Positions 1,775-13,076 of a DNA stretch of 13,076 nucleotides are shown here, piece after piece. The position numbers and the translations under genes are program-made. Below the pieces are notes generated by a model. That model worked only from the letters and a program-made list of their open reading frames with translations, was not told the DNA's origin and did not search any database. Within the stretch, counting starts at the first letter, position 1; each line of letters starts with the position of its first letter. Location: contig JAUQVK010000020.1 of NCBI GenBank assembly GCA_039794845.1, forward strand, positions 1 through 13,076, written 5' to 3'. This DNA is from Thermostichus sp. DRC_bins_24 (GTDB lineage Bacteria > Cyanobacteriota > Cyanobacteriia > Thermostichales > Thermostichaceae).

Positions 1775-4597
1775 ATGGCAATTCCACAATGTATTCCCGT
1801 TCCTGGGTTGCATTCCGAAATGATGCAGAGCTCAGAAACCCATTCTCATTTGGAGCAATTCAAGCAGACGAAGCGAGATTTGGAAAAAAGGAACCGGGAA
1901 TTGCAGCTCCTCTATCAACTGTCCAGACTGCATCTGTCGGCCGCCACCTTGGACCGAGTTTTTCAGTTGGCGGCGGCTCAAATCGCGGAAGTGACCGAAT
2001 TTCCGGTGGTGGCGATTGGGCTGTACGATGCAACCCGCCAGGTGATGGTGTTTGAGGGCATGACCGGGATCCCCTTACCGGCCGGGGTTTCGGTGCTGGA
2101 AGTGCCTGTGTCGGAGACCTGTTCAGGCACCGTGGTGCAGCACAAGCAGCCTGTTGTTAAAACCTATGCCCCCGGAGAAGAGAAACCCTGTGATCGCAAT
2201 AGTCTGCTCAGTCAACTGAAGATTGGCACCTTTGTTTGTATTCCCATGCTGGTTGGGGAAGAAGCCATTGGCACCCTCAGTCTGGCTCATCCCGAACCCA
2301 TTGAAGTGGATAGAGAACAGTTGGCGGGGCTGACCAGTTTGGCCAATTATCTGGCCCTGTTAGCCCACAACAAAAGAGTGGAAGCGGATCTGCGCCAAAG
2401 CCATGAGCGCTACTGTTTGGCTACCCGGGTGGTGAAAGGCATCGTTTACGAATGGGATCCGCAGGCCAATTCCGTTTTGCGGGAGAAGGGTTTGTTTGAG
2501 CTGTTGGGCTTTCGAGAAGAGGAGGTAGAGCCCACCGGAGACTGGTGGTTTGAACGCATTCATCCCGAGGATTTGCCTGCTTGTAGGGCTGAGTTTAAGC
2601 GGCTCTTCTCCGGTGGACAAGATCAATTTCAATGCGAATATCGCGTCCGTCGTCGAGATGGATCCTATGTGTTTGTGTTGGATCGGGGGATAGTTCTCCG
2701 GGATCCACAAGGGCAGATTACCCGAGTTATTGGAAACACTCAAGACATCAGCGAAGAGAAAGCAGCTGAACAAACCTTGCACCAACAATTGCGACAAACC
2801 CAGCTGCTGGCAGAAATTTCCCACCACATTCGTGAATCGTTGGATCTCGACCAAATCCTCAATCGGACGGTTTCGGAAGTGCGATCCCTACTGCAAACGG
2901 ATCGGGTGATCCTGTTTCAGCTTCGCCCCGATGGGAGCGGGGATGTGGTAACAGAGTCGGTGGCGGATCCTTGGCGACCGATTTTGGGATCCAACATTTA
3001 CGACCGTTGTTTTGCCCAATCGTTTATGGCGCCCTATCGGCAGGGACGGGTGAAAGCCATTGAAGACATCGAAACCGTCGGGCTTGATCCTTGTCATGTG
3101 CAGTTGCTCCGGCAGCATCAGGTGCGGGCCAACTTGGTGGTGCCCATCCTGCAGGAGGGATCCCTATGGGGCTTGTTGATTGCCCATCATTGTCGTGGCC
3201 CTCGCCGTTGGCAACCTCATGAGGTGGATCTGCTTAAGCATTTGGCGGATCAGGTGGCCATTGCCATTCAGCAATCGCAGCTTTATCAGCAGGTGCGCCA
3301 GCTCAATGCCGACCTAGAAGATATGGTGGAAGACCGCACCCAACAACTGCGGCAGGCCCTCGAGTTTGAATCCTTGCTCAAAGGCATGATCGAGAAAGTG
3401 CGCGATAGCCTAGACGAAGACTACATTTTACAAACTGCTGTTGAAGAATTGGGTCGCCAACTCCAGGTTATATGCTGCGATACTGCCCTTTATCATTTGG
3501 AAGAGCAATCCTCCACGATCAATCACGAATATCTCAACCCCGATAGCCCAGGGTTGCTGCCTGCGCTGGGCAAAGTGGTCTCCTTCCAAACCTTTCCCGA
3601 TCTTTATCACCAACTTCTGCAGGGCCAGTCCATTCAATTTTGTCTGCGGTTAAGCCCTTCTTATCGCAACCCTTCCCCGGCCCCCGAAGAACGATTCACG
3701 GTGCTCAGTTGTCCGCTCCAGGATGAGAACCAAGTCTTGGGGGATATGTGGCTCTACAAATCCGCATTGGCGACCTTCAGCGACGCGGAAGTACGGATGA
3801 TTCAACAGGTGGCCAATCAATGTGCCATCGCCCTGCGGCAAGCCCGCCTCTACAAAGCTTCCCAGGCCCAAGTCCAAGAATTGGAACGTCTGAACCGACT
3901 GAAAGATGACTTTTTGAGTACCGTCTCTCACGAGTTACGCTCTCCCATGGCCAGCATCAAAATGGCGGCAAAAATGTTGTCGGTGGTGCTGGATCGGGTG
4001 GATATTTCCAGCGAAAACGAAGCGGTCATCCAACGCTATTTGTCTATCCTCGACCAGGAATGTGCGCGAGAAACCAACCTGATCAACGATCTCCTAGAAC
4101 TCTCCCGCCTCGATGCCAATACCCAGCCGGTGGAATGGACCTCCCTCAACCTAGAAGACTGGCTGCCCCGCCAGTTGGATCCCTTTCGAGAACGGGCCGC
4201 CTCCCACGCTCAAACCCTCACCCTTCTTTTGCCAGAGCATCTGCCCCCCGTCATCACCTCCCCAGGGTATCTGGAGCGCGTTGTTACGGAGCTGCTCACC
4301 AATGCCTGCAAATACACCCCGGCGGGAGAGCAGATCACCGTCTCCATCACCTTCCTGGCGGATACCTGGCAACTGCAGGTGGCGAATACAGGCGTGGTCA
4401 TCCCCCCAGAAGAACTGGCACGGGTATTCGACAAATTCTATCGGGTACCCAACAACGATCCCTGGAAACATGGGGGTACGGGTCTGGGCCTGGCCTTGAG
4501 CCAAAAAGTTGCCGAACGCCTCCGGGGATCCCTGCGGGCCGAAAGTGGGCGGAACGAAACCCGATTCATTCTGGAGTTGCCCTTGCAACCGGAGTAA
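1775..4597 (+). CDS. Cyanobacteriochrome sensor histidine kinase: GAF - PAS/PAC - DXCF-type CBCR GAF - GAF - HisKA - HATPase_c
   Basis: 940-aa ORF with AAGGAG 10 nt upstream. PAS/PAC motifs are RIHPED and EYRVRRRDGSY. The CBCR GAF contains DRV, DRCF, CH and LWGLLIAHHC..PRRW. The H-box is FLSTVSHELRSP (His codon 3929), the N-box ELLTNACKYT, and the G1/F/G2 boxes NTGVVIP, VFDKFYR and GGTGLGL. No transmembrane segment is obvious. Confidence 0.95.
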   Translation: MAIPQCIPVPGLHSEMMQSSETHSHLEQFKQTKRDLEKRNRELQLLYQLSRLHLSAATLDRVFQLAAAQIAEVTEFPVVAIGLYDATRQVMVFEGMTGIPLPAGVSVLEVPVSETCSGTVVQHKQPVVKTYAPGEEKPCDRNSLLSQLKIGTFVCIPMLVGEEAIGTLSLAHPEPIEVDREQLAGLTSLANYLALLAHNKRVEADLRQSHERYCLATRVVKGIVYEWDPQANSVLREKGLFELLGFREEEVEPTGDWWFERIHPEDLPACRAEFKRLFSGGQDQFQCEYRVRRRDGSYVFVLDRGIVLRDPQGQITRVIGNTQDISEEKAAEQTLHQQLRQTQLLAEISHHIRESLDLDQILNRTVSEVRSLLQTDRVILFQLRPDGSGDVVTESVADPWRPILGSNIYDRCFAQSFMAPYRQGRVKAIEDIETVGLDPCHVQLLRQHQVRANLVVPILQEGSLWGLLIAHHCRGPRRWQPHEVDLLKHLADQVAIAIQQSQLYQQVRQLNADLEDMVEDRTQQLRQALEFESLLKGMIEKVRDSLDEDYILQTAVEELGRQLQVICCDTALYHLEEQSSTINHEYLNPDSPGLLPALGKVVSFQTFPDLYHQLLQGQSIQFCLRLSPSYRNPSPAPEERFTVLSCPLQDENQVLGDMWLYKSALATFSDAEVRMIQQVANQCAIALRQARLYKASQAQVQELERLNRLKDDFLSTVSHELRSPMASIKMAAKMLSVVLDRVDISSENEAVIQRYLSILDQECARETNLINDLLELSRLDANTQPVEWTSLNLEDWLPRQLDPFRERAASHAQTLTLLLPEHLPPVITSPGYLERVVTELLTNACKYTPAGEQITVSITFLADTWQLQVANTGVVIPPEELARVFDKFYRVPNNDPWKHGGTGLGLALSQKVAERLRGSLRAESGRNETRFILELPLQPE
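2840..3286 (+). other. Bilin-binding DXCF cyanobacteriochrome GAF domain within the kinase
   Basis: DRCF motif at 3002-3013 supplies the second Cys (C412). The canonical CH motif at 3092-3097 supplies C440-H441. Confidence 0.88.
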
Positions 4598-4676: not shown

Positions 4677-5273
4677 ATGAATTCTTCCATCCGTGTTCTC
4701 ATCGCCGACGATCATCCCCTGTTCCGGCTGGGGTTGAAGTTTGCTCTGCAAGCTCAGGGGTTTGAGGTGGTGGCAGAAGCGGAAACGGGATCCCAGGCGG
4801 TGAACTGTTGCCGAGAGACTCCGATTGACGTAGCCATTTTGGATGTGCGCATGCCGGATGGCGATGGCATTGTGGCCTGCCAGCAAATCACTGCGTTGGG
4901 TCTGCCCCTGGTGGTGCTGTTGATGACCACCTTTCAGGAGCCTGCCCTCATCGAAGCCGCCCGCCGAGCAGGAGCCAAGGGGTATCTCTCCAAAGAGACC
5001 GATCCAGCGGAGCTGGCCCGGATGATCCGGCAAATTGTGGCCGCGCCCGAGCAAGATTGGCTCCCCGCCAAGCAAAACTTGCCCCACCTCACCCCACGGG
5101 AGCTGTGTGTGCTGCAACTGATGATGGAGGGGTTGGCCAACAAACAAATTGCCCGCCGCCTCGGCCTGAGCATTGAAACCGTGAAGGAATACGCCAGCAC
5201 CGCCTACCGCAAACTGGAGGCCAGCGACCGCGTCACCGCCCTGTTCAAAGCGCAACAACTGGGCATTTTGTAA
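4677..5273 (+). CDS. NarL/FixJ (LuxR-HTH) family response regulator, 198 aa
   Basis: Receiver domain has RVLIADDHPLFR, phosphoacceptor AILDVRMP (Asp codon 4842), MTT and YLSKE. The LuxR HTH is LTPRELCVLQLMMEGLANKQIARRLGLSIETVK. I chose the ATG at 4677 because the receiver domain starts there; an in-frame ATG at 4629 is an alternative. Confidence 0.93.
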   Translation: MNSSIRVLIADDHPLFRLGLKFALQAQGFEVVAEAETGSQAVNCCRETPIDVAILDVRMPDGDGIVACQQITALGLPLVVLLMTTFQEPALIEAARRAGAKGYLSKETDPAELARMIRQIVAAPEQDWLPAKQNLPHLTPRELCVLQLMMEGLANKQIARRLGLSIETVKEYASTAYRKLEASDRVTALFKAQQLGIL

Positions 5274-5357: not shown

Positions 5358-5404
5358 GGCATCTTGGCAAGGGATCCCTTGTTTTGGGTGCCTTTCTCTT
5401 CTTT
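5358..5404 (+). terminator. Terminator/attenuator-like hairpin with a pyrimidine-rich tail
   Basis: The outer stem GGCATC(5358-63)/GGTGCC(5387-92) encloses the perfect 14-bp palindrome CAAGGGATCCCTTG (5368-5381). It is followed by TTTCTCTTCTTT (5393-5404). Confidence 0.4.
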
Positions 5405-5420
5405 CCGTCCTCTGAGAGAT

Positions 5421-8400
5421 ATGGCCATGCCTGCTCCTTCTACGCTGCTGCTCAAGCTCACCCTGCGGTTGCTCGGATCTTTGAAGGCGCGGGTGGACAA
5501 AGCCAAAATTCGGCAGCGCGGCTTTGTCTTGCCGATTGCCATCTTGATCGTCCTTGTGCTGAGTTTGGTAACGGTGGGTCTGTTGACTCGATCTACTCAG
5601 CGGAGCGTGCAAACCCAGGTTGAACGGGCCGGCCAAACCGTTAGCCGACAGTTGAATGCAGCCATTGACCGGGCTAGAGCCAAAATTGATTTCCTGGTTC
5701 GGGATCCGCGCTTACCCAACAGTGCCCCCACCGATGCCCAGTTTGCCTCGGCCCTGATTAACGACGGGGTTCTTATCCCCGAAAGTACCGATCAGCCCTA
5801 CATCCTGCCGGATGAAACCCAGTTTGTTATCACCACCGATATTCCAGTGGAGGATCCCCCTAATTCCGGGAATTTTATAGATGTCCCAGTACAGGCACCT
5901 GCTTGGTGGTTTTTGGTAGATACCGATAACAATGGCACCGATGACTCTGTAACGGTTTACACGATCCTGAGTGCTCGTCGGGCTGCCGGTAGAGACTTTG
6001 AAGACAACCTGACGGATACAGAGCGGGCACGTCGCCTAATGATTCGGAGTGGCCCACTGCAAGGGGCAGCCTTGGCAGGGTGTACCGATAGCCCCGCGGC
6101 TCAAACCATTAACCCCAACGTGGGGGATTGGTTCCAGGTGGGTTCTGCATTGTACAAGCCTTTCCAAGTGTATGCGGTTACCCTCCCGATTCAAGGGGCT
6201 GACTCGACAACTCGAGCTATTTCTGCCTTGCAATTCCAGCAGGATCGGCGGCGAGATGTATTGAACAAGTGGGGAGCCTTTAGCCGGGGGGATATGGAGT
6301 ACTTCTTCACCCCTGGCTACAACTGGAATGGTGCCATTTACGCCGGCGGCAGCCTGTTTTTCCGCTATGGGCCAGACAACCTATTCCGAGCCTTCACCAT
6401 CAGTTCCGAGCAATCCTGCTTCTACATGCCCGTGGATAACTCGGAAATTAAAGCCTTTGGAGAATTGGTAGCGGGGGCGATTGGTTTTGCCGGGCAGGAG
6501 GCCAGCGACAACATCCGCTTTGATGCCCATCCAGGATCCATTGATGTTGCACCCACCTTCTTCCCCAGTTTGAATAACCAGAATTTCGACTCGGTTGCCA
6601 ACGATGCCGACCCGGCGGCCATTGCTCTGGATCCCCTGGAATTGCACCTGTTTGGCCGCAACCGCAACCGAGGCACTTATGCCCAGGATCAGGCGGGTTG
6701 GAATACTTCTCCAGTGAATTCCAAGCGTTCCGGCGGGGATCCGGGGCGGGTAGAGGCAGGGGGGTTTGCCGCCGGATCCGGTCAGGTGTGCCCACCCTAC
6801 GTGGACGATGTCTATCGGGCAGACAATCGCTTTGGCCCAAAAGCTAGCTACGACCGGCCTCCCACGGTACCGGATCCGGTGAGGGGTTGTGATGTGCCCA
6901 CCTTTGCCGAGACCTTTGGTCAGACGACTGGGGCTCCGATTGGTAGTGGGGCCATCAACAACCAAAATGAATCTTTAACCGCCGATGATCCCCCTCCCGG
7001 GGCCCTTTCGGAAGTCGGATTGGATGGCTATTGGGAACGTCGTTCTCGTCTAGAGGGTTTACGAGTCATTGTGGGGCAACGGCTGGAGCTCACTCGGACG
7101 GATTCACTGCCCCTGCCCCTGGTTCCTGCCCCTGCTGATCCTGGTGATCCCAGCAACCTGCAACCCATTTACATCAGCAACGAAGCCCGCCAACGCCAAA
7201 CCCTGCGGGACAATCCTGCCGCTGTACAAGCCACGGCGGTCTATCACTACAGTCAAAATCAGGGTCGCTTCCCGGTGGCTTGTTTGGCCACGGTTGCTCA
7301 CCCCGGTTCTGTCGACAGCCTGCGGCGGGCTTCCACTTTCCCCGCAGGCAACCAAGCCACCCAATTGGGGATTAACTTCTTTACGGGGCAAGGCACAAAC
7401 ACCTGGGAATATGACCCGACCCCCATGCAAACCCAAAACCGTTTGCAGGCCGGTACTCCGCTTTGGAATGCCCTGACCAACCTAGCCAACTTTGCCGGGG
7501 ATCCTCAGGGAGCCTTCCCGCCCACTCAAGAGCCCGGACGGATTCACCCAGATCCGTTTATCACGGCTTTCGGGAATTTCTCAGAGTTACGACGAATTAT
7601 TGACAGTGGTGTAGACTACACCAACCTGAGCCTGGCGGATCAAACTACGGTGCAGACCGCGGCCTGTATGCTGGGGATGCTCGCAGATAACATTATCCGC
7701 ATTCAAAACGCTGCTGTCGCCGGAGATTCGGCTGCACAGCTCCTGTGGAATGATATCCAGGCCAGCTTGGCGGGCAATCGGGAGACGAACCCGGTTACCG
7801 GTGCAGCGGTGAACCGTTTCTACTTGCCGCTGCGCTACATCTTTCCCACCGCCAATTTTAACCAAACGGATCCGATAGAAGCAGAACGCCGTGCTGCCTA
7901 TTCCTTCCTTCCTGCTACGGTGAATTATCTGGCGGTACCCGATTTGGCGCAGGTGGCCTTGCCCCCTCGGTCGGGGATTGGCAACTGGGCCTTGCCCCAT
8001 GCCCAACAAAATTGTCCCAACGCAACCGCTGGCCCCAACAGCAACCGATTTGATCTGATTCAGATTGATGGGCAGTGCCATCGGGTGCCCTTTAAGGACT
8101 CCGTCTTTTATGACGGACGAGAGGCAATGGCGGTGCGCAACCTGAACATTGACTTGGCCTTGATTACCAACAATGTCGACAATCAGTCCAATGGTCTGAT
8201 TGCCGGGGATACTTGGCTACCCGCCGGAATTGAAGAAAATCGAGAAGGGGGGATTTTCTACGCCTTCCGAGAGGATGCGGTACGGGAGGATGCCATTGCC
8301 CGCCCTGCTCTGGGGAGTTTTGCCGATTACCTAACCAATTGGCGCAACGGCACTGCCAGCGGCAACCTGGGCAGCGCTGGGGTAATGAATGCTGGACAAC

Positions 8401-11400
8401 CCAATCGAGGAACCGCCAACAATCAAACCGTTTGGGATCCCCCCATTTCCAATGTGGCCCCGGATAATACGGGCCTAAGTCCCAAGCCTGTGGACTATTT
8501 CGCCGATCCGGATCGGCGACCCTACGGTTTCCGGCTGCGGAATGGGGCGGTGCTGCGCCGGGGAGGCTTGGATGCTGATGAAGCCGTGTTTGGTTTGTCC
8601 TTCATTTCCGATAATCCTGTTTATATTCAAGGGGACTTTAACCTACACCAGAACACAGGTGGGACGCTTCTGGAGGAGTTCACCACCCTATTGGGCATTG
8701 GTGGGGATGGCCTCTACAACAACTTCTACGGACGGTTGCGGGCAAATGAAGATGCTAGCTTTGCTCGTGCTGCTCAGGATTTGTGGCGGCCGACCGATGT
8801 GCTAGGCGACTCGGTGAATATTCTTTCCCCCAATTTCTGCGATGGCAGCATTGACGACGGATTTGTGCAGGATGGCACCTTGAATGGTGGGGGCTCTGCC
8901 TTTGTGGCCAACCGCGATTATCAAAGTGGTCGGGCTTCTGCTCCCCGCCGTGTGGACTATTACGGTTGCACGGGGCCAAACTTGGGGGCCAACACCTCCT
9001 TTATTAACCAGGCCTTGGTGGTGCGGGGGAACAACTGGCCCGCTCCGGATCCCAACAACGATGGGGCGGGGGTACGCCGGTTTGACAACACCAACGGTGC
9101 CCAAGATTTGGGGGACAACACCAACCGTCCCGGCTGGCCGGATCTGTTCGCCCGCGATACGGTATTGGCCCAATTTGACAGTACAAATGACACCACTGTG
9201 GGTGGTGGAATCCCTCAGGTACGGCGGTTGCGGGCACCGGATCCGGGCTATGCCTCCTTTGGTACGCGCATTTCCGCTTTGGGTAACCCAGTGGTGGATA
9301 CCTCCCGCTGGGTGATGGTGGCTCCCCCAGGGCCATGCCCTGCTCCCAATGGCTCCGGTTTGTTGGCGGAATACTACAACGGTTGGCTCTCCAGCCCGCA
9401 AAACCAGTACAATCGAGCAGATACAGGTTTTGCTGCGAGTGGTGAAGTCGGTCTGGGTTCAGCCGCTCGAACAGCCAACTTGCCCTATCTGCGCTCGGTT
9501 CGTTGGCCGGATACAATCTATCCCGCTCAAGGGGTTCCTGATGCTGTGGGTGCCTCTACAGGAGCTCCTAGCTGCAACCTAACAGGTACTAATGATCAAC
9601 GTTGGGCCTGTGTACGGGATGCCGTCAATGACGTAAGCGAACTGGCAGGGTTTGCCCGCAGTAGTGGTTCTTTCCCAGATTGGGGTGGTTTTTACTACCA
9701 GTTTGGCAGCAGCAATGCTCAAAACTCCAACTCACCCTTTAAGCGGCGACTGTACAACAACTTCCCCACCTGTAATGGCAGCTTGTCGGATATTTTCAAT
9801 CCTAGTTGCCGCCTATCTATACCGATTCTGTCGCCCCCTAACCCCTGGCCTCCCACGGTGCCCTTTAACCCACCCGATCCAAGCCCAGATCGGCGAGATC
9901 GGGGAGATTTTTTCTGGGTACCTGATTGTGGGGAACAAGATGGCAGCCCTCCCCTTTCTAGGGATGCTGATGACATTGGCTACTCTTACAGACCCTTGGG
10001 CAACCCCCGCATTGGCTATAACAACACTGACCCTGACCCTCTTAATCAGGGTGTGGTAGACTTCACCTTTAACCCCAATCAATTTAACCATTTACGTTCC
10101 TGCTGGCGGCGACGCAGTGGCGGCAGCCCCAGTGGTAACAACCAGGGCAACGACTTTTTCGTGGTGCGCTGGATAGGTCAGCTCTATCCTCGATATCCTG
10201 GCCTGGTAAACTATCGCCTGAATACGGATGATGGCGGGCGGATCCTGATCCGGCGGCGGGAGGATGACTCAACGGCCACCTTTCAGAATGCCTCTGCCGC
10301 CAATGGTACGTTCCTGAACCCCAACCCCAACACCGTCGGGGCCGAATCCTGGTTTGACAGCGGCAATGCCCTCACCACCTTGCGGGTGGAACTGGAGTGT
10401 GCTGATCCAGCTCAGGACTCCCCTTATTTGGTGGAGATCCAGACCTACGAGAACGCCGGTGGAGCTTTTGTTCGCTTCACCACCAACCCCGATGGACAGG
10501 GTGTAGAGAACTACGACCTGCGCTATCTGAAACCGGTGCGGCCGGTGAACAAACCCTGTGAGCCGGATCAGAGTAAAACGGTTAAAGATCCAACCGTACA
10601 AGCTAACTGTGCGACCACCCTCAACTGTGAACCGATTTGGAGTGGTTGGACTCCAGCCTGTGAGACGAATATTTGCGTTACCACCACCATCACCCAAACC
10701 CAGACCGCTACACTACCGAAAGGGTGTCCAGGTCTCCCACCCACCCCAAAAACTCAGTTGGAAACCTGTAATCCTCAATTTACTTTTGGGGATTGGTCTG
10801 CTTGGTCACCGGAGTGTACCCTAACGCAGCAGTGTAATGGGACTAAGATTACCCAAAGCCGCAGCCGCACACTTACCCCCTTATGTGTCACCAATCCTCC
10901 CTTCACCGAAACTCAAACCCGAACCATCACCTGCTCAGCACCTAGCCCCACCTGCGGCCCCTACTCTGCTTGGGATCCGGCCTGTAGTGTGGCTAATGGC
11001 GGCCTAAAAGTCACCCAGACCCGTTCTCTCAACTGTAACTCGGTCTGCAAAGGGGACTACACCCAAACCGAGACCCAAACCATCACCTGTCCAGCCGAAT
11101 GCAATGACTACTCGGCGGGGCCTTGGTCGCCTACCTGCGACAGCCTCACCATTGCCTGTGGCACCAGCCAGCCCTTAACCCAAACCCGTACCCTAACCAA
11201 AGGTGCCAACAACAGCCCCACCTGCCCCGCCACCAAAACCGAAACCCGAACCATCACCTGCACAGGCAAACCTTGCGGACCGACTACCTTTGCCCCGGAT
11301 TCTCCCTTCGACAGTCCGTTCGGGAAGCGAGTGGCCGTTAAACCCAGCACCCTGGACTTGCGCCCAGTGTGGGAAATCGAAGCCGATCCGGAGCCAGAAA

Positions 11401-12854
11401 CCCTGAGTGTGGCTTCTGTGGCTGCTCCTGCCAGCGTACCGGCGGGGGTAACCCTTGCCCTTCAGCCAGAGCTCTCGCCAGTGCTGGAGGTAAAAGCTGC
11501 CACCCGGCAGCCCCGCTGGCCCAGCTTGACGGAAGCTGTGCAGTCTGCCTTTAACTGGGTGTTTGGTGAGCCGGCTTATGCAGCCCGTAGAGGCTTAACC
11601 AGTGGCTTGCTCTCCAGCAAAATTGCTAATCCTACAAAAGAGCCAGGCATTCGCCCGGCGCAAAATGATGTGTCCCCCATCAAAGGAATGCCGCCTGTGG
11701 GTTCAGATGACTGGGCCAGGCAGTTGCGCCGGCGGTTGCTGAATGATAACGGGGAAGTTCGCTGCGGTGATGAAGAAGTGAATGCCACCGATAAGGGCTT
11801 TTGGGTGCCGGGGGTATTCCGGCCCAACTTCAACACCACCTTCAAATACACTGCCTACACAGGCAACAGCCGTCCCAGCACTCTAAAACTTGTCCCAGAT
11901 CCCAAGGATCCAGGCGTCAAGATCATTGTTGACCGGGATCCGCTGTTTGGGGATATCCCTGACGTACAGCCCCAAATGCGCCTCAATCCCTACGCTCGGG
12001 TGCAGACGGCTGTGGCCCAAGCCTACACCACCACGTCTGCCTACCTGGATGGGTACTACATTGACGACGAAGGGGCAGAGGCCATTCAGAATGGCCTTTG
12101 CTTCTACGTCAAACCTGCCGGCAATACCATTCAAATCCAGATTGACCGCAACGGTGGCGATGGTGGGCAGCAGGAATGGGTGAATGTGGAGCCGTTTACC
12201 CTGAATATCAACGCTGCCACCACCGGCTTTGCCGGGGCTAACCCCGTCTTGGGGGTGATTTTGGATGAGGTTACCCGTCGGCCCATCCCCATCCCCAACT
12301 TCCAGGAGCTGGCCTCCACCAACCTGGGCAATCGCCGCCGCAACGACAATGGCACCACCAACTCTCAGCTGCAACCTGCTGCGGAAACCCGGGTCAATGC
12401 CGTTGCCATCAGCGGGATTGTTCCACCCCGCCGCGATCAGCAAAGCGGTGGTATGCACAACTTCCTGCGCCTGAATGAGCTATGGCGAAACACCAACCTG
12501 TTTTTCAGTGGATCCATGATCCAACTGAACTACAGCACCTACTCCACCGGGCCTTTCTTGCAACGCAGCTTTGAGCCCCCCAACTTGGTTGCCGATGCAA
12601 CCAATGTGCTGGGCTTCGACTATTACTTCCCCCCCAATCGCCGCTTTGGCTATGATGTCGGCTTGCAAATTGCCCGTCGGTTCAGCCCAGTGTCGGCTCG
12701 TTTCCAGTTCCCCTCCAATACTCGAACAGAGTTTCTCAGAGAACTGGATCCTCGAGATCCTTACGTCCGTCGTCTGCGTTGTGCGTTGCAAGACCAACCA
12801 GGCGTTACCTTAGAAGGTGCTGCCCAAATCGGAGGTTGTGGGGAGTTTAATTAG
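5421..12854 (+). CDS. hpsA: HpsA-family giant protein (PilX-like prepilin N-terminus, putative pilus/polysaccharide-secretion associated) with inserted PA14-like domain and TSP1-like repeats, ~2477 aa
   Basis: Class III signal RQRG|FVLPIAILIVLVLSLVTVGLL (Phe codon 5523). Blocks I recognise from HpsA-family proteins: AAIDRARAKI..L..DPRLP, VDTDNNG, LDGYWERR...EGLRVIVGQRLEL, EARQRQTLRDN, YAFREDAVREDAIARP, GLSPKPVDYFADPDRRPYGFRLRNG, FISDNPVYIQGDFNLH, NFCDGSI.DGF, ETRVNAV.ISGIVP.R, GG.HNF.R and GYDVGL. A pseudopilin gene follows, as in the hps locus. The start is ATG 5421 or 5427 (GAGAG upstream) rather than TTG 5364. Confidence 0.85.
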   Translation: MAMPAPSTLLLKLTLRLLGSLKARVDKAKIRQRGFVLPIAILIVLVLSLVTVGLLTRSTQRSVQTQVERAGQTVSRQLNAAIDRARAKIDFLVRDPRLPNSAPTDAQFASALINDGVLIPESTDQPYILPDETQFVITTDIPVEDPPNSGNFIDVPVQAPAWWFLVDTDNNGTDDSVTVYTILSARRAAGRDFEDNLTDTERARRLMIRSGPLQGAALAGCTDSPAAQTINPNVGDWFQVGSALYKPFQVYAVTLPIQGADSTTRAISALQFQQDRRRDVLNKWGAFSRGDMEYFFTPGYNWNGAIYAGGSLFFRYGPDNLFRAFTISSEQSCFYMPVDNSEIKAFGELVAGAIGFAGQEASDNIRFDAHPGSIDVAPTFFPSLNNQNFDSVANDADPAAIALDPLELHLFGRNRNRGTYAQDQAGWNTSPVNSKRSGGDPGRVEAGGFAAGSGQVCPPYVDDVYRADNRFGPKASYDRPPTVPDPVRGCDVPTFAETFGQTTGAPIGSGAINNQNESLTADDPPPGALSEVGLDGYWERRSRLEGLRVIVGQRLELTRTDSLPLPLVPAPADPGDPSNLQPIYISNEARQRQTLRDNPAAVQATAVYHYSQNQGRFPVACLATVAHPGSVDSLRRASTFPAGNQATQLGINFFTGQGTNTWEYDPTPMQTQNRLQAGTPLWNALTNLANFAGDPQGAFPPTQEPGRIHPDPFITAFGNFSELRRIIDSGVDYTNLSLADQTTVQTAACMLGMLADNIIRIQNAAVAGDSAAQLLWNDIQASLAGNRETNPVTGAAVNRFYLPLRYIFPTANFNQTDPIEAERRAAYSFLPATVNYLAVPDLAQVALPPRSGIGNWALPHAQQNCPNATAGPNSNRFDLIQIDGQCHRVPFKDSVFYDGREAMAVRNLNIDLALITNNVDNQSNGLIAGDTWLPAGIEENREGGIFYAFREDAVREDAIARPALGSFADYLTNWRNGTASGNLGSAGVMNAGQPNRGTANNQTVWDPPISNVAPDNTGLSPKPVDYFADPDRRPYGFRLRNGAVLRRGGLDADEAVFGLSFISDNPVYIQGDFNLHQNTGGTLLEEFTTLLGIGGDGLYNNFYGRLRANEDASFARAAQDLWRPTDVLGDSVNILSPNFCDGSIDDGFVQDGTLNGGGSAFVANRDYQSGRASAPRRVDYYGCTGPNLGANTSFINQALVVRGNNWPAPDPNNDGAGVRRFDNTNGAQDLGDNTNRPGWPDLFARDTVLAQFDSTNDTTVGGGIPQVRRLRAPDPGYASFGTRISALGNPVVDTSRWVMVAPPGPCPAPNGSGLLAEYYNGWLSSPQNQYNRADTGFAASGEVGLGSAARTANLPYLRSVRWPDTIYPAQGVPDAVGASTGAPSCNLTGTNDQRWACVRDAVNDVSELAGFARSSGSFPDWGGFYYQFGSSNAQNSNSPFKRRLYNNFPTCNGSLSDIFNPSCRLSIPILSPPNPWPPTVPFNPPDPSPDRRDRGDFFWVPDCGEQDGSPPLSRDADDIGYSYRPLGNPRIGYNNTDPDPLNQGVVDFTFNPNQFNHLRSCWRRRSGGSPSGNNQGNDFFVVRWIGQLYPRYPGLVNYRLNTDDGGRILIRRREDDSTATFQNASAANGTFLNPNPNTVGAESWFDSGNALTTLRVELECADPAQDSPYLVEIQTYENAGGAFVRFTTNPDGQGVENYDLRYLKPVRPVNKPCEPDQSKTVKDPTVQANCATTLNCEPIWSGWTPACETNICVTTTITQTQTATLPKGCPGLPPTPKTQLETCNPQFTFGDWSAWSPECTLTQQCNGTKITQSRSRTLTPLCVTNPPFTETQTRTITCSAPSPTCGPYSAWDPACSVANGGLKVTQTRSLNCNSVCKGDYTQTETQTITCPAECNDYSAGPWSPTCDSLTIACGTSQPLTQTRTLTKGANNSPTCPATKTETRTITCTGKPCGPTTFAPDSPFDSPFGKRVAVKPSTLDLRPVWEIEADPEPETLSVASVAAPASVPAGVTLALQPELSPVLEVKAATRQPRWPSLTEAVQSAFNWVFGEPAYAARRGLTSGLLSSKIANPTKEPGIRPAQNDVSPIKGMPPVGSDDWARQLRRRLLNDNGEVRCGDEEVNATDKGFWVPGVFRPNFNTTFKYTAYTGNSRPSTLKLVPDPKDPGVKIIVDRDPLFGDIPDVQPQMRLNPYARVQTAVAQAYTTTSAYLDGYYIDDEGAEAIQNGLCFYVKPAGNTIQIQIDRNGGDGGQQEWVNVEPFTLNINAATTGFAGANPVLGVILDEVTRRPIPIPNFQELASTNLGNRRRNDNGTTNSQLQPAAETRVNAVAISGIVPPRRDQQSGGMHNFLRLNELWRNTNLFFSGSMIQLNYSTYSTGPFLQRSFEPPNLVADATNVLGFDYYFPPNRRFGYDVGLQIARRFSPVSARFQFPSNTRTEFLRELDPRDPYVRRLRCALQDQPGVTLEGAAQIGGCGEFN
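9351..10529 (+). other. PA14-like domain (interrupted) inside the HpsA-like protein
   Basis: PA14 motifs appear in the expected order: GSGLLAEYYNG (9351), VVDFTF (10053), NDFFVVRWIGQLYP...Y.L (10149), TDDGGRILI (DD at 10227-10232) and YLVEIQTYENAGGAFVRF. Confidence 0.75.
10626..11261 (+). repeat. Four tandem ~48-57 aa Cys/Trp/Thr-rich thrombospondin type-1-like repeats (coding)
   Basis: Units lie at 10626-10769, 10770-10934, 10935-11090 and 11091-11261. They contain WSGWTPAC / WSAWSPEC / YSAWDPAC / GPWSPTC, then TQ(S/T)(R/Q)(S/T), and end in ETC or T(R/Q)TITC. An exact 20-nt DNA repeat AAACCCGAACCATCACCTGC occurs at 10915-10934 and 11242-11261. Confidence 0.8.
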
Positions 12855-12942: not shown

Positions 12943-13076
12943 ATGGCTCGGTTGATAAATTGGCAGCGCTTCCACCGTCGGTGGAAGTCAGCAGATGGGT
13001 TCTCCCTAATCGAAGTGTTGGCCTCGGTGATCATCGTGGCCATTGCCATGGCAGCACTCGCACCAGCCCTAACCCT
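12943..13076 (+). CDS. hpsB: Type IV prepilin-like pseudopilin (HpsB-like), 5' fragment
   Basis: ATG at 12943 follows AGGGAG (12928-12933). Translation MARLINWQRFHRRWKSADG|FSLIEVLASVIIVAIAMAALAPALT shows a canonical prepilin peptidase site with Glu+5. The symbol is inferred from its position directly after the hpsA-like gene. Confidence 0.75.
   Translation, partial: MARLINWQRFHRRWKSADGFSLIEVLASVIIVAIAMAALAPALT

Follow-up and report, generated by a model that had tools for sequence, protein, structure and literature searches.

Host protein and layout of the locus

The stretch of DNA analyzed here (the window) comprises 13,076 nucleotides of contig JAUQVK010000020.1 of Thermostichus sp. DRC_bins_24 and contains an hpsA gene encoding a giant minor pilin with a cysteine-rich array of four tandem units that resemble thrombospondin type-1 repeats (TSRs) (Table 1). 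The initial annotation had named the host protein HpsA, and its score is indeed above the curated NCBIfam cutoff of 400. The profile aligns to positions 5466 to 8861 and 12327 to 12797, and about 1,150 residues between these segments lie outside it. Along the protein, the order is HpsA core, a region X, a PA14-type domain, the array, a linker of about 95 residues, a conserved motif, a region Y, and again the core. Both ends of the X-to-Y insert run back into the HpsA core, and the PA14-type domain is closely linked to X. The named relatives are from Thermostichus and related "Synechococcus" strains.

The accessible parts of PMC13759059 describe HpsA as a member of the PilX-EPS subfamily, tip-capping pilins with a beta-solenoid in the pilin fold and lineage-specific added domains, note that PilX lacks Glu5, and give HpsA a role in motility and polysaccharide secretion. 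They propose that PilX-EPS recognizes the slime track and leave the added domains undefined. The protein studied here shares with other members of NF038301, such as Nostoc HpsA and Synechocystis PilA12, the prepilin helix without Glu5, the hpsB- and hpsC-like pilins that follow, and a large lineage-specific insert, but differs from them in that its insert carries a PA14-type domain and a TSR-like array.

Table 1. Features of the hpsA locus (positions in the window)
Feature	Position	Strand	Remarks
hpsA, PilX-EPS-type giant minor pilin	5427..12854	+	2,475 residues from ATG; open reading frame (ORF) open from TTG at 5364; NCBIfam NF038301, 507.8 bits
Prepilin-type Gly-Phe cleavage site and hydrophobic helix, without Glu at position 5	5520..5585	+	Sequence, hydropathy peak
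PA14-type beta-sandwich domain	9345..10535	+	Core 10092 to 10535; likely first strand at about 9357, split off by an insertion of about 250 residues
Asp-Asp pair matching the calcium site (DcisD) in alignments	10227..10232	+	Partner Asn at 10452 to 10454; alignment to solved PA14 domains
Two-Cys cap between PA14-type domain and array	10551..10610	+	Exactly these 2 Cys kept in repeat-less G009 and G017
TSR-like unit 1, 5 Cys	10626..10769	+	Unit alignment, model
TSR-like unit 2, 4 Cys, WxxW and RxR	10770..10934	+	Unit absent from 18-Cys form
TSR-like unit 3, 5 Cys	10935..11090	+	Unit that best matches solved TSR structures
TSR-like unit 4, complete six-Cys set	11091..11276	+	Unit alignment, Cys pairing pattern
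Low-complexity linker, about 95 residues after the array	11283..11561	+	48 to 127 residues in relatives
Conserved motif ending in Ala-x-Ala	11562..11585	+	In 91 of 94 PA14-bearing HpsA proteins
Next prepilin gene (start), hpsB/PilV-like	12943..13076	+	Cut by contig end; prepilin sequence

Sequence and units of the array

The segment from 10551 to 11282 is in frame with the ORF from 5364 to 12854 and encodes 244 residues. A recount bore out the four tandem units, the 22 Cys, the two KPC motifs (10551 and 11268) and the exact 20-nucleotide repeat (10915 and 11242, the longest in the segment) that had been reported for it. The density of Cys is 6 to 9 per 100 residues in the array, compared with 0 to 4 per 100 in the rest of HpsA. 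The first two Cys (10557 and 10608) form a cap that is kept in HpsA proteins without repeats, and the array proper hence has 20 Cys. The units are 48, 55, 52, and 62 residues long.

The motif W/Y-S-x-W-x-P-x-C, reported for the units, is complete in units 1 to 3 (10638, 10794, and 10962), and unit 4 retains only the second Trp (11124). The description of unit 4 as degenerate thus holds for this motif, but it is also the only unit with all six Cys, in what we take to be the order of spondin-type TSRs. The T-Q-x-R strand was claimed too broadly, as the second strand of unit 1 has no Arg in this strain, although Arg or Lys is found there in 57 of 58 aligned relatives. When 40 units from 13 sources were aligned, the columns of Trp, Pro, Gln, and four Cys proved invariant, with one Cys column common to neighboring units.

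Cysteine and unit counts refer to 89 HpsA-type proteins with both flanks; two truncated proteins were dropped, proteins that departed from the flank patterns went uncounted, and these relatives are not independent of each other. The comparison of repeat number among relatives, suggested earlier, gave two to four units or none: four units in 56 proteins, three in 26, two in 6, and none in 1, and degenerate units can be undercounted. The 20-nucleotide repeat exists, as stated, but because it lies in Thr-rich codons it is on its own weak evidence of duplication, and duplication and deletion are better indicated by the variation in unit number. A search with a unit profile did not find a second copy of the unit in the strain's own genome.

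The array is about neutral (17 basic and 16 acidic residues), with a median charge of +2 over 88 arrays. WxxWxxW occurs in 0 of 89 relatives and WxxW in 85 of 89 (units 1 and 2 of the query); RxRxR is likewise found in 0 of 89 and RxR in 83 of 89 (unit 2 only in the query), and the receptor-binding motif CSVTCG is in none of the 89. The array has a GC content, overall and at third codon positions (GC3), like that of the rest of the gene (GC3 of 0.57 compared with 0.56 to 0.63). An assembly artifact was ruled out, since the segment is conserved in 82 relatives at 36 to 77% identity. Thrombospondin type-3 repeats, a different calcium-binding repeat, were rejected as well.

Fold of the repeats

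The TSR is an elongated three-stranded antiparallel fold. A unit has about 60 residues, and WxxWxxW, RxRxR, and CSVTCG are listed among its motifs in the available part of PMC5446238. An AlphaFold2 model of the array, built on a 10-sequence alignment, reached a predicted local distance difference test score (pLDDT) of 85 and contains four elongated beta units with long paired strands in each. The TSR-like fold claimed at the outset was supported on this predicted model by two programs. In Foldseek, ranks 1 to 17 were all TSRs of properdin or thrombospondin-1 (best E-value 5e-6, seven at 0.001 or below), and in a VIA comparison with 48,161 chains, ranks 1 to 7 all contained TSRs (Z 3.7 to 4.2, root mean square deviation [rmsd] 3.0 to 3.8, 45 to 48 residues aligned). 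Unit 3 matched properdin (VIA Z 4.2, rmsd 3.0, 48 residues aligned) and TSR3 of BAI1 (Z 3.8), and units 3 and 4 together matched a tandem pair of properdin domains (Z 4.3, rmsd 5.9, 102 residues). In the second structural comparison unit 2 matched the UNC5H2 ectodomain (Z 3.5, rmsd 3.6, 51 residues), and the bacterial G5/E and Rib rods ranked below the TSRs (Z 2.2 to 3.1).

A profile of the array, searched against 1.84 billion proteins, gave 20 matches: 7 HpsA-type relatives, 12 other repeat proteins, and 1 ADGRB3-like protein of abalone (E-value 3e-9), which itself carries Pfam TSP_1 at 7e-20. The unit profile scored 29.9 bits on this abalone protein, compared with at most 6.1 bits in 200 local shuffles.

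Several results count against the assignment. The predicted template modeling score of the array model was 0.42, so that the model does not demonstrate the rigidity of a rod, and the whole-chain TM-scores in Foldseek were 0.13 to 0.18. The VIA Z-scores of 3.7 to 4.3 fall short of about 8, the level that the tool gives for noise, with none reaching 5, and may reflect a common arrangement. Just 1 of the 20 profile matches is an animal TSR protein. The proposed check of the segment with TSP_1-type Pfam models was negative: no Pfam family was found at an E-value of 1 or below, NCBIfam gave no family, the genome search had no match at the segment, and a TSP family was found in 0 of 10 aligned members even at an E-value of up to 10 in Pfam. 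Against the PDB, the unit profile found thrombospondin-1 only at nonsignificant E-values of 2.5 and 6.5. In addition, the array profile gave one unrelated PDB match (E-value 0.71), phmmer with the segment gave none at 10 or below, and ESM Atlas placed the array with TSP1/spondin clusters at 0.77 to 0.83, a low recognition and a lead only, and P0086, one of the repeat proteins described below, with unnamed clusters only.

The missing Pfam match, the low Z-scores, the Atlas values of at most 0.83, and the nonsignificant PDB profile matches would all be expected if the likeness to TSRs were superficial, the array being an independent Cys- and Thr-rich beta repeat that serves only as a heat-stable linker, with AlphaFold led by the pattern of Trp, Cys, and Arg; the GC and GC3 values, like those of the rest of the gene, would also fit. 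We consider this very improbable, given that two programs rank TSRs over all other folds, including bacterial rods, that the profile match to a real TSR protein is significant and stands above its shuffle controls, and that unit 4 has six Cys in TSR order.

The closest known domain is the TSR (PF00090; properdin 6RUS/6S08, thrombospondin-1 1LSL/3R6B, BAI1 TSR3 7R84, and F-spondin TSR4 1VEX). The array shares with it tandem units of 48 to 62 residues, a Trp-bearing first strand, Gln and Arg in the second strand, putative layers of Cys, and a predicted elongated three-strand fold. Unlike TSRs, the units have no more than two Trp, invariably place a Pro ahead of the next Cys, and lack both RxRxR and CSVTCG; the array is also Thr-rich and neutral, has likely disulfides between units, fails to match Pfam, and resides in a bacterial pilin. 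TSRs are expected to have five or six conserved Cys per unit; the units here have 5, 4, 5, and 6. Because Pfam TSP_1 and the full TSR motifs fail despite the structural and profile matches, we call the units TSR-like: they are not canonical members of TSP_1 and are probably homologous to TSRs.

Cysteine counts and proposed disulfides

The HpsA-type proteins have 2, 14, 16, 18, 20, or 22 Cys in the segment, an even number in 89 of 89. Some Cys are lost jointly, namely, 145 and 172 in relatives G004, P0079, and P0085 and 213 and 252 in P0085 (residues are numbered from nucleotide 10521). The patterns follow a rule in which the loop behind a unit's second strand has as many Cys as the leading Cys of that unit and the first-loop Cys of the previous unit taken together. 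This rule fits 79 automatically parsed close relatives, which show two patterns, and 7 of 8 hand-anchored patterns, and P0102, outside this test, fits by eye. The way in which Cys are gained and lost among relatives suggests disulfides between neighboring repeats, and from the rule we infer the interunit links 52-122 and 105-176. With such links, a deletion of unit 2 takes exactly four Cys. The remaining pairs, within units or the cap, would be 13-30, 36-69, 47-83, 99-138, 145-172, 155-190, 194-235, 206-247, and 213-252.

The case for this pairing is weakened by the failure of the rule for P0089, by its derivation in part from the same patterns with hand-set anchors, and by the automatic assignment of Cys roles, which failed or was mistaken in six divergent proteins whose anchors were then set by hand. 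P0122 and P0123 represent the two-unit form, in which units 1 and 2 have been lost; a single remnant Cys brings their total to an even 14.

Among the proteins of the genome is a VKOR protein (95 bits against a cutoff of 27.5) with a C-terminal CxxC, presumably the cyanobacterial disulfide-forming enzyme. This VKOR-thioredoxin enzyme would oxidize the Cys of the array after export.

A PA14-type domain upstream of the array

Directly before the array lies a PA14-type domain that the initial annotation had not noted. A profile of positions 10092 to 10535 had three PDB matches at an E-value of 10 or below, all of them PA14 domains (6QDI, 2e-9; 6QE7, 2e-8; 6M8M, 0.08). The model of this core (pLDDT of about 75) matched 6QE7 best in VIA (Z 8.6, rmsd 4.3, 109 residues aligned), and 6M8M, 5A3L, and 6X95 were also in the top ten. 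The N-terminal two-thirds of the model of the region has a pLDDT below 50; the model did not place the first strand, which we assign by its likeness to the motif. Pfam PA14 did not match the query, and in relative G017 it scored 19.8 bits (E-value 7e-4), under the cutoff of 24. Within the likely PA14 domain, at about 9400 to 10090, lies the insertion of about 250 residues, with several Cys, 35 to 73% identity among relatives, and no confident fold.

The Asp-Asp pair and Asn form the calcium and sugar site of PA14 domains, as described in the available portion of PMC6852018. The second Asp and the Asn of this triad are invariant in 9 of 9 sequences. The domain resembles PA14 lectin modules (RsgI3 PA14, 6QDI/6QE7; MhLap, 6M8M; MpPA14, 6X95; Flo5/Epa) in profile, fold, and the residues aligned to the triad, but differs from them in being below Pfam detection, in its probable split by the insertion, and in its carrier, which is a pilin rather than an anti-sigma factor, an RTX adhesin, or a yeast wall protein. 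From sequence and model, we consider the PA14-type domain a better candidate for the glycan binder than the array.

Linker and conserved motif behind the array

The Ala-x-Ala motif behind the linker is present also in G017, which has no repeats, and elsewhere in the genome it was found in one other short frame only. We take it to resemble a signal-peptidase box. Hence, HpsA might be cut at this internal site, making the array the free end of an N-terminal fragment, either a dangling arm or a piece that is shed, instead of a section of a closed loop. The wide conservation of the motif and its position after a variable low-complexity linker would suit such a cleavage, as would the likeness to the signal-peptidase box. 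We nevertheless judge it very improbable: no strongly hydrophobic stretch was found before the motif (best 19-residue mean 1.5, compared with 2.9 for the pilin helix), and its scarcity in the genome also argues against it.

Distribution and history

The array was present in 10 of 31 relatives' genomes (the strain's own included), all in the genus, in 2 of 401 genomes of the phylum, both in the genus, and, at the level of the order, in 11 of 30 genomes, representing 2 of 11 genera; several array-negative genomes are fragmented, so that "not found" does not mean "absent." The PA14 part is more widespread (15 of 30 order genomes, four genera). A routine part of all HpsA proteins, which would have made the array unremarkable, was rejected, because it was not found outside the genus in the 401 phylum genomes and because the full-length HpsA proteins of G012, G021, G027, G028, and G030 lack the motifs. 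One HpsA of G028 (G028:C66, L049), with 3,160 residues, has neither these repeats nor PA14 motifs, suggesting that other cargo is likely inserted in the HpsA family.

The slot of the array is filled by a short Pro/Thr linker in G009 and P0124 and by poly-Pro in G017. A quick tree of the HpsA core gives G009 a four-unit protein as its sister (support 100), well inside the repeat-bearing clade, and puts G017 outside this clade. Since G009 is nested and G017 is not, the history can be read as a single gain, in a slot rich in Pro, followed by a loss in G009. The array is dispensable in at least one lineage. A recent transfer from an animal was rejected: the GC3 matches the rest of the gene and the array is present in deep branches.

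Surrounding genes

In relative L014 the gene order is hpsA, an hpsB-like, an hpsC-like, and a FimT/GspH-like gene; the best matches of these downstream genes were HpsB (50.6 bits), HpsC (102.6 bits), and a FimT/GspH-type pilin, all below their own cutoffs. Immediately before hpsA and in the same orientation, the window contains genes for a GAF-PAS-GAF-GAF histidine kinase (1775 to 4597) and a LuxR-type response regulator (4677 to 5273). A gene for an ABC-F family ATPase, on the minus strand at 1 to 1257, is cut by the contig end.

A possible strut or adhesin arm

With moderate confidence, we hypothesize that the array is a stiff, disulfide-stapled strut of variable length beside the PA14-type domain as the likely glycan binder of the pilus tip. 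We favor a strut because the array varies in length, occupies a slot that otherwise holds Pro-rich spacers, is neutral, and lacks the TSR binding motifs. The prepilin helix would put HpsA at the motility-pilus tip, together with the downstream minor pilins. The block of PA14-type domain, array, and linker would form a loop in the HpsA core, and its four TSR-like units would be locked into one rod by disulfides within units and between neighbors. Given that the insert joins the core at both ends and that little separates the PA14-type domain from X, the likely arrangement is a rod that projects from the base of the PA14-type domain, with the linker of 95 residues running back. Rod and linker would in this way define how far the tip reaches and its geometry. 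The PA14-type domain would bind calcium and sugar, the latter likely of the slime track or the mat matrix.

Some observations fit this hypothesis poorly. Loss of the array is rare (1 of 89 proteins), the tree was a quick version with 20 rows and no bootstrap, and the short link between the PA14-type domain and the upstream part means that the rod may not lift the lectin. By motif count, only 68 of 94 relatives have the Asp-Asp pair, and 21 of 94 have Asn-Asp. Moreover, Trp, Gln, and Arg are nearly invariant across all four units, which would also suit a role in binding.

The last point is central to an alternative that we consider possible but on balance unlikely, in which the array itself is an adhesin arm whose face of Trp, Gln, and Arg would, like TSRs of animals and apicomplexans, bind either a glycan or some protein of a neighbor in the mat and provide a second specificity beside the PA14-type domain. 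Such an arm would agree with the retention of the array in 88 of 89 proteins and with the topology of a projecting loop, and TSR WxxW motifs bind glycosaminoglycans according to the accessible part of PMC5446238. However, the net charge is close to zero, the complete binding motifs are missing from all 89 relatives, Pro-rich linkers replace the array in G009, P0124, and G017, and a place in the core of the fold can account for the conserved residues. Of the stalk or glycan-binding arm proposed in the initial annotation, the same points favor the stalk and speak against the arm.

Relation to other systems and significance

In TRAP, a ligand-binding I domain is followed by a TSR, as stated in the part of PMC7351488 that was accessible. 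HpsA resembles Plasmodium TRAP and Toxoplasma MIC2 in that a binding domain (in HpsA, a likely one) stands directly before TSR or TSR-like units, in surface proteins that are linked to the machinery of motility. The fold matches of the array included 4HQL and 4HQO (Z 2.8 to 2.9). The head domain and motor of HpsA are unrelated to those of TRAP and MIC2, and the analogy is one of layout only. A bolder proposal, which we regard as doubtful, is that the motility-pilus tip of these mat cyanobacteria is a calcium-lectin adhesin on the plan of the apicomplexan gliding adhesins, with a PA14-type domain that reads the cell's own slime track and with true TSR homologues stapled by disulfides from unit to unit. 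The outcome would be a continuous rod, stable to heat, that differs in length from strain to strain (0, 2, 3, or 4 units) as a form of tuning.

The uncurated prokaryotic-type proteins P0086, P0090 to P0093, and P0095 to P0101 show the same pattern of WxxWxP and QxRxR. The unit profile scored 16 to 30 bits on them, above local shuffles in the four tested. They differ from the array in having fewer Cys (by eye) and DUF285 or LRR_5 as partners rather than a pilin and PA14. In these surface-type proteins, as many as 36 TSR-like units go undetected by Pfam TSP_1, and some of the proteins are named as bacterial proteins from metagenome-assembled genomes. The view that such repeats are uncommon in bacteria was hence too strong. 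Viruses are possible carriers of a TSR-like module. Matches of the array model in BFVD included TSP1-annotated proteins of an Ostreococcus virus (rank 5) and an uncultured phage (rank 13), and the top Atlas cluster of the array is from giant viruses.

As had been surmised, a description of TSR-like repeats in HpsA was not found, nor was one of PA14 domains, in a literature search that included few subscription journals and did not extend to the original Nostoc hps papers. The accessible text of PMC13759059 and 11 text supplements do not contain "thrombospondin," and the supplements do not contain "PA14." TSR-like repeats occur in other bacterial surface proteins as well. The significance is limited by the narrow distribution, by the dispensability of the array in at least one lineage, and by the fact that TSR-like repeats are not rare in bacteria.

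TSP1 has been argued to be animal-derived in apicomplexans, at least in the part of PMC3417536 available to us, and TSR-like repeats that Pfam misses bear on this view of the domain. The interunit disulfides, if real, would be a new way of building a rigid rod from TSR modules. Finally, the locus names two candidate added domains, a lectin of the PA14 type and a rod of TSR-like units, for the slime-track proposal as it appears in the accessible parts of PMC13759059, and the natural variants with 0, 2, 3, and 4 units make this proposal of a grip on slime track or polysaccharide directly testable.

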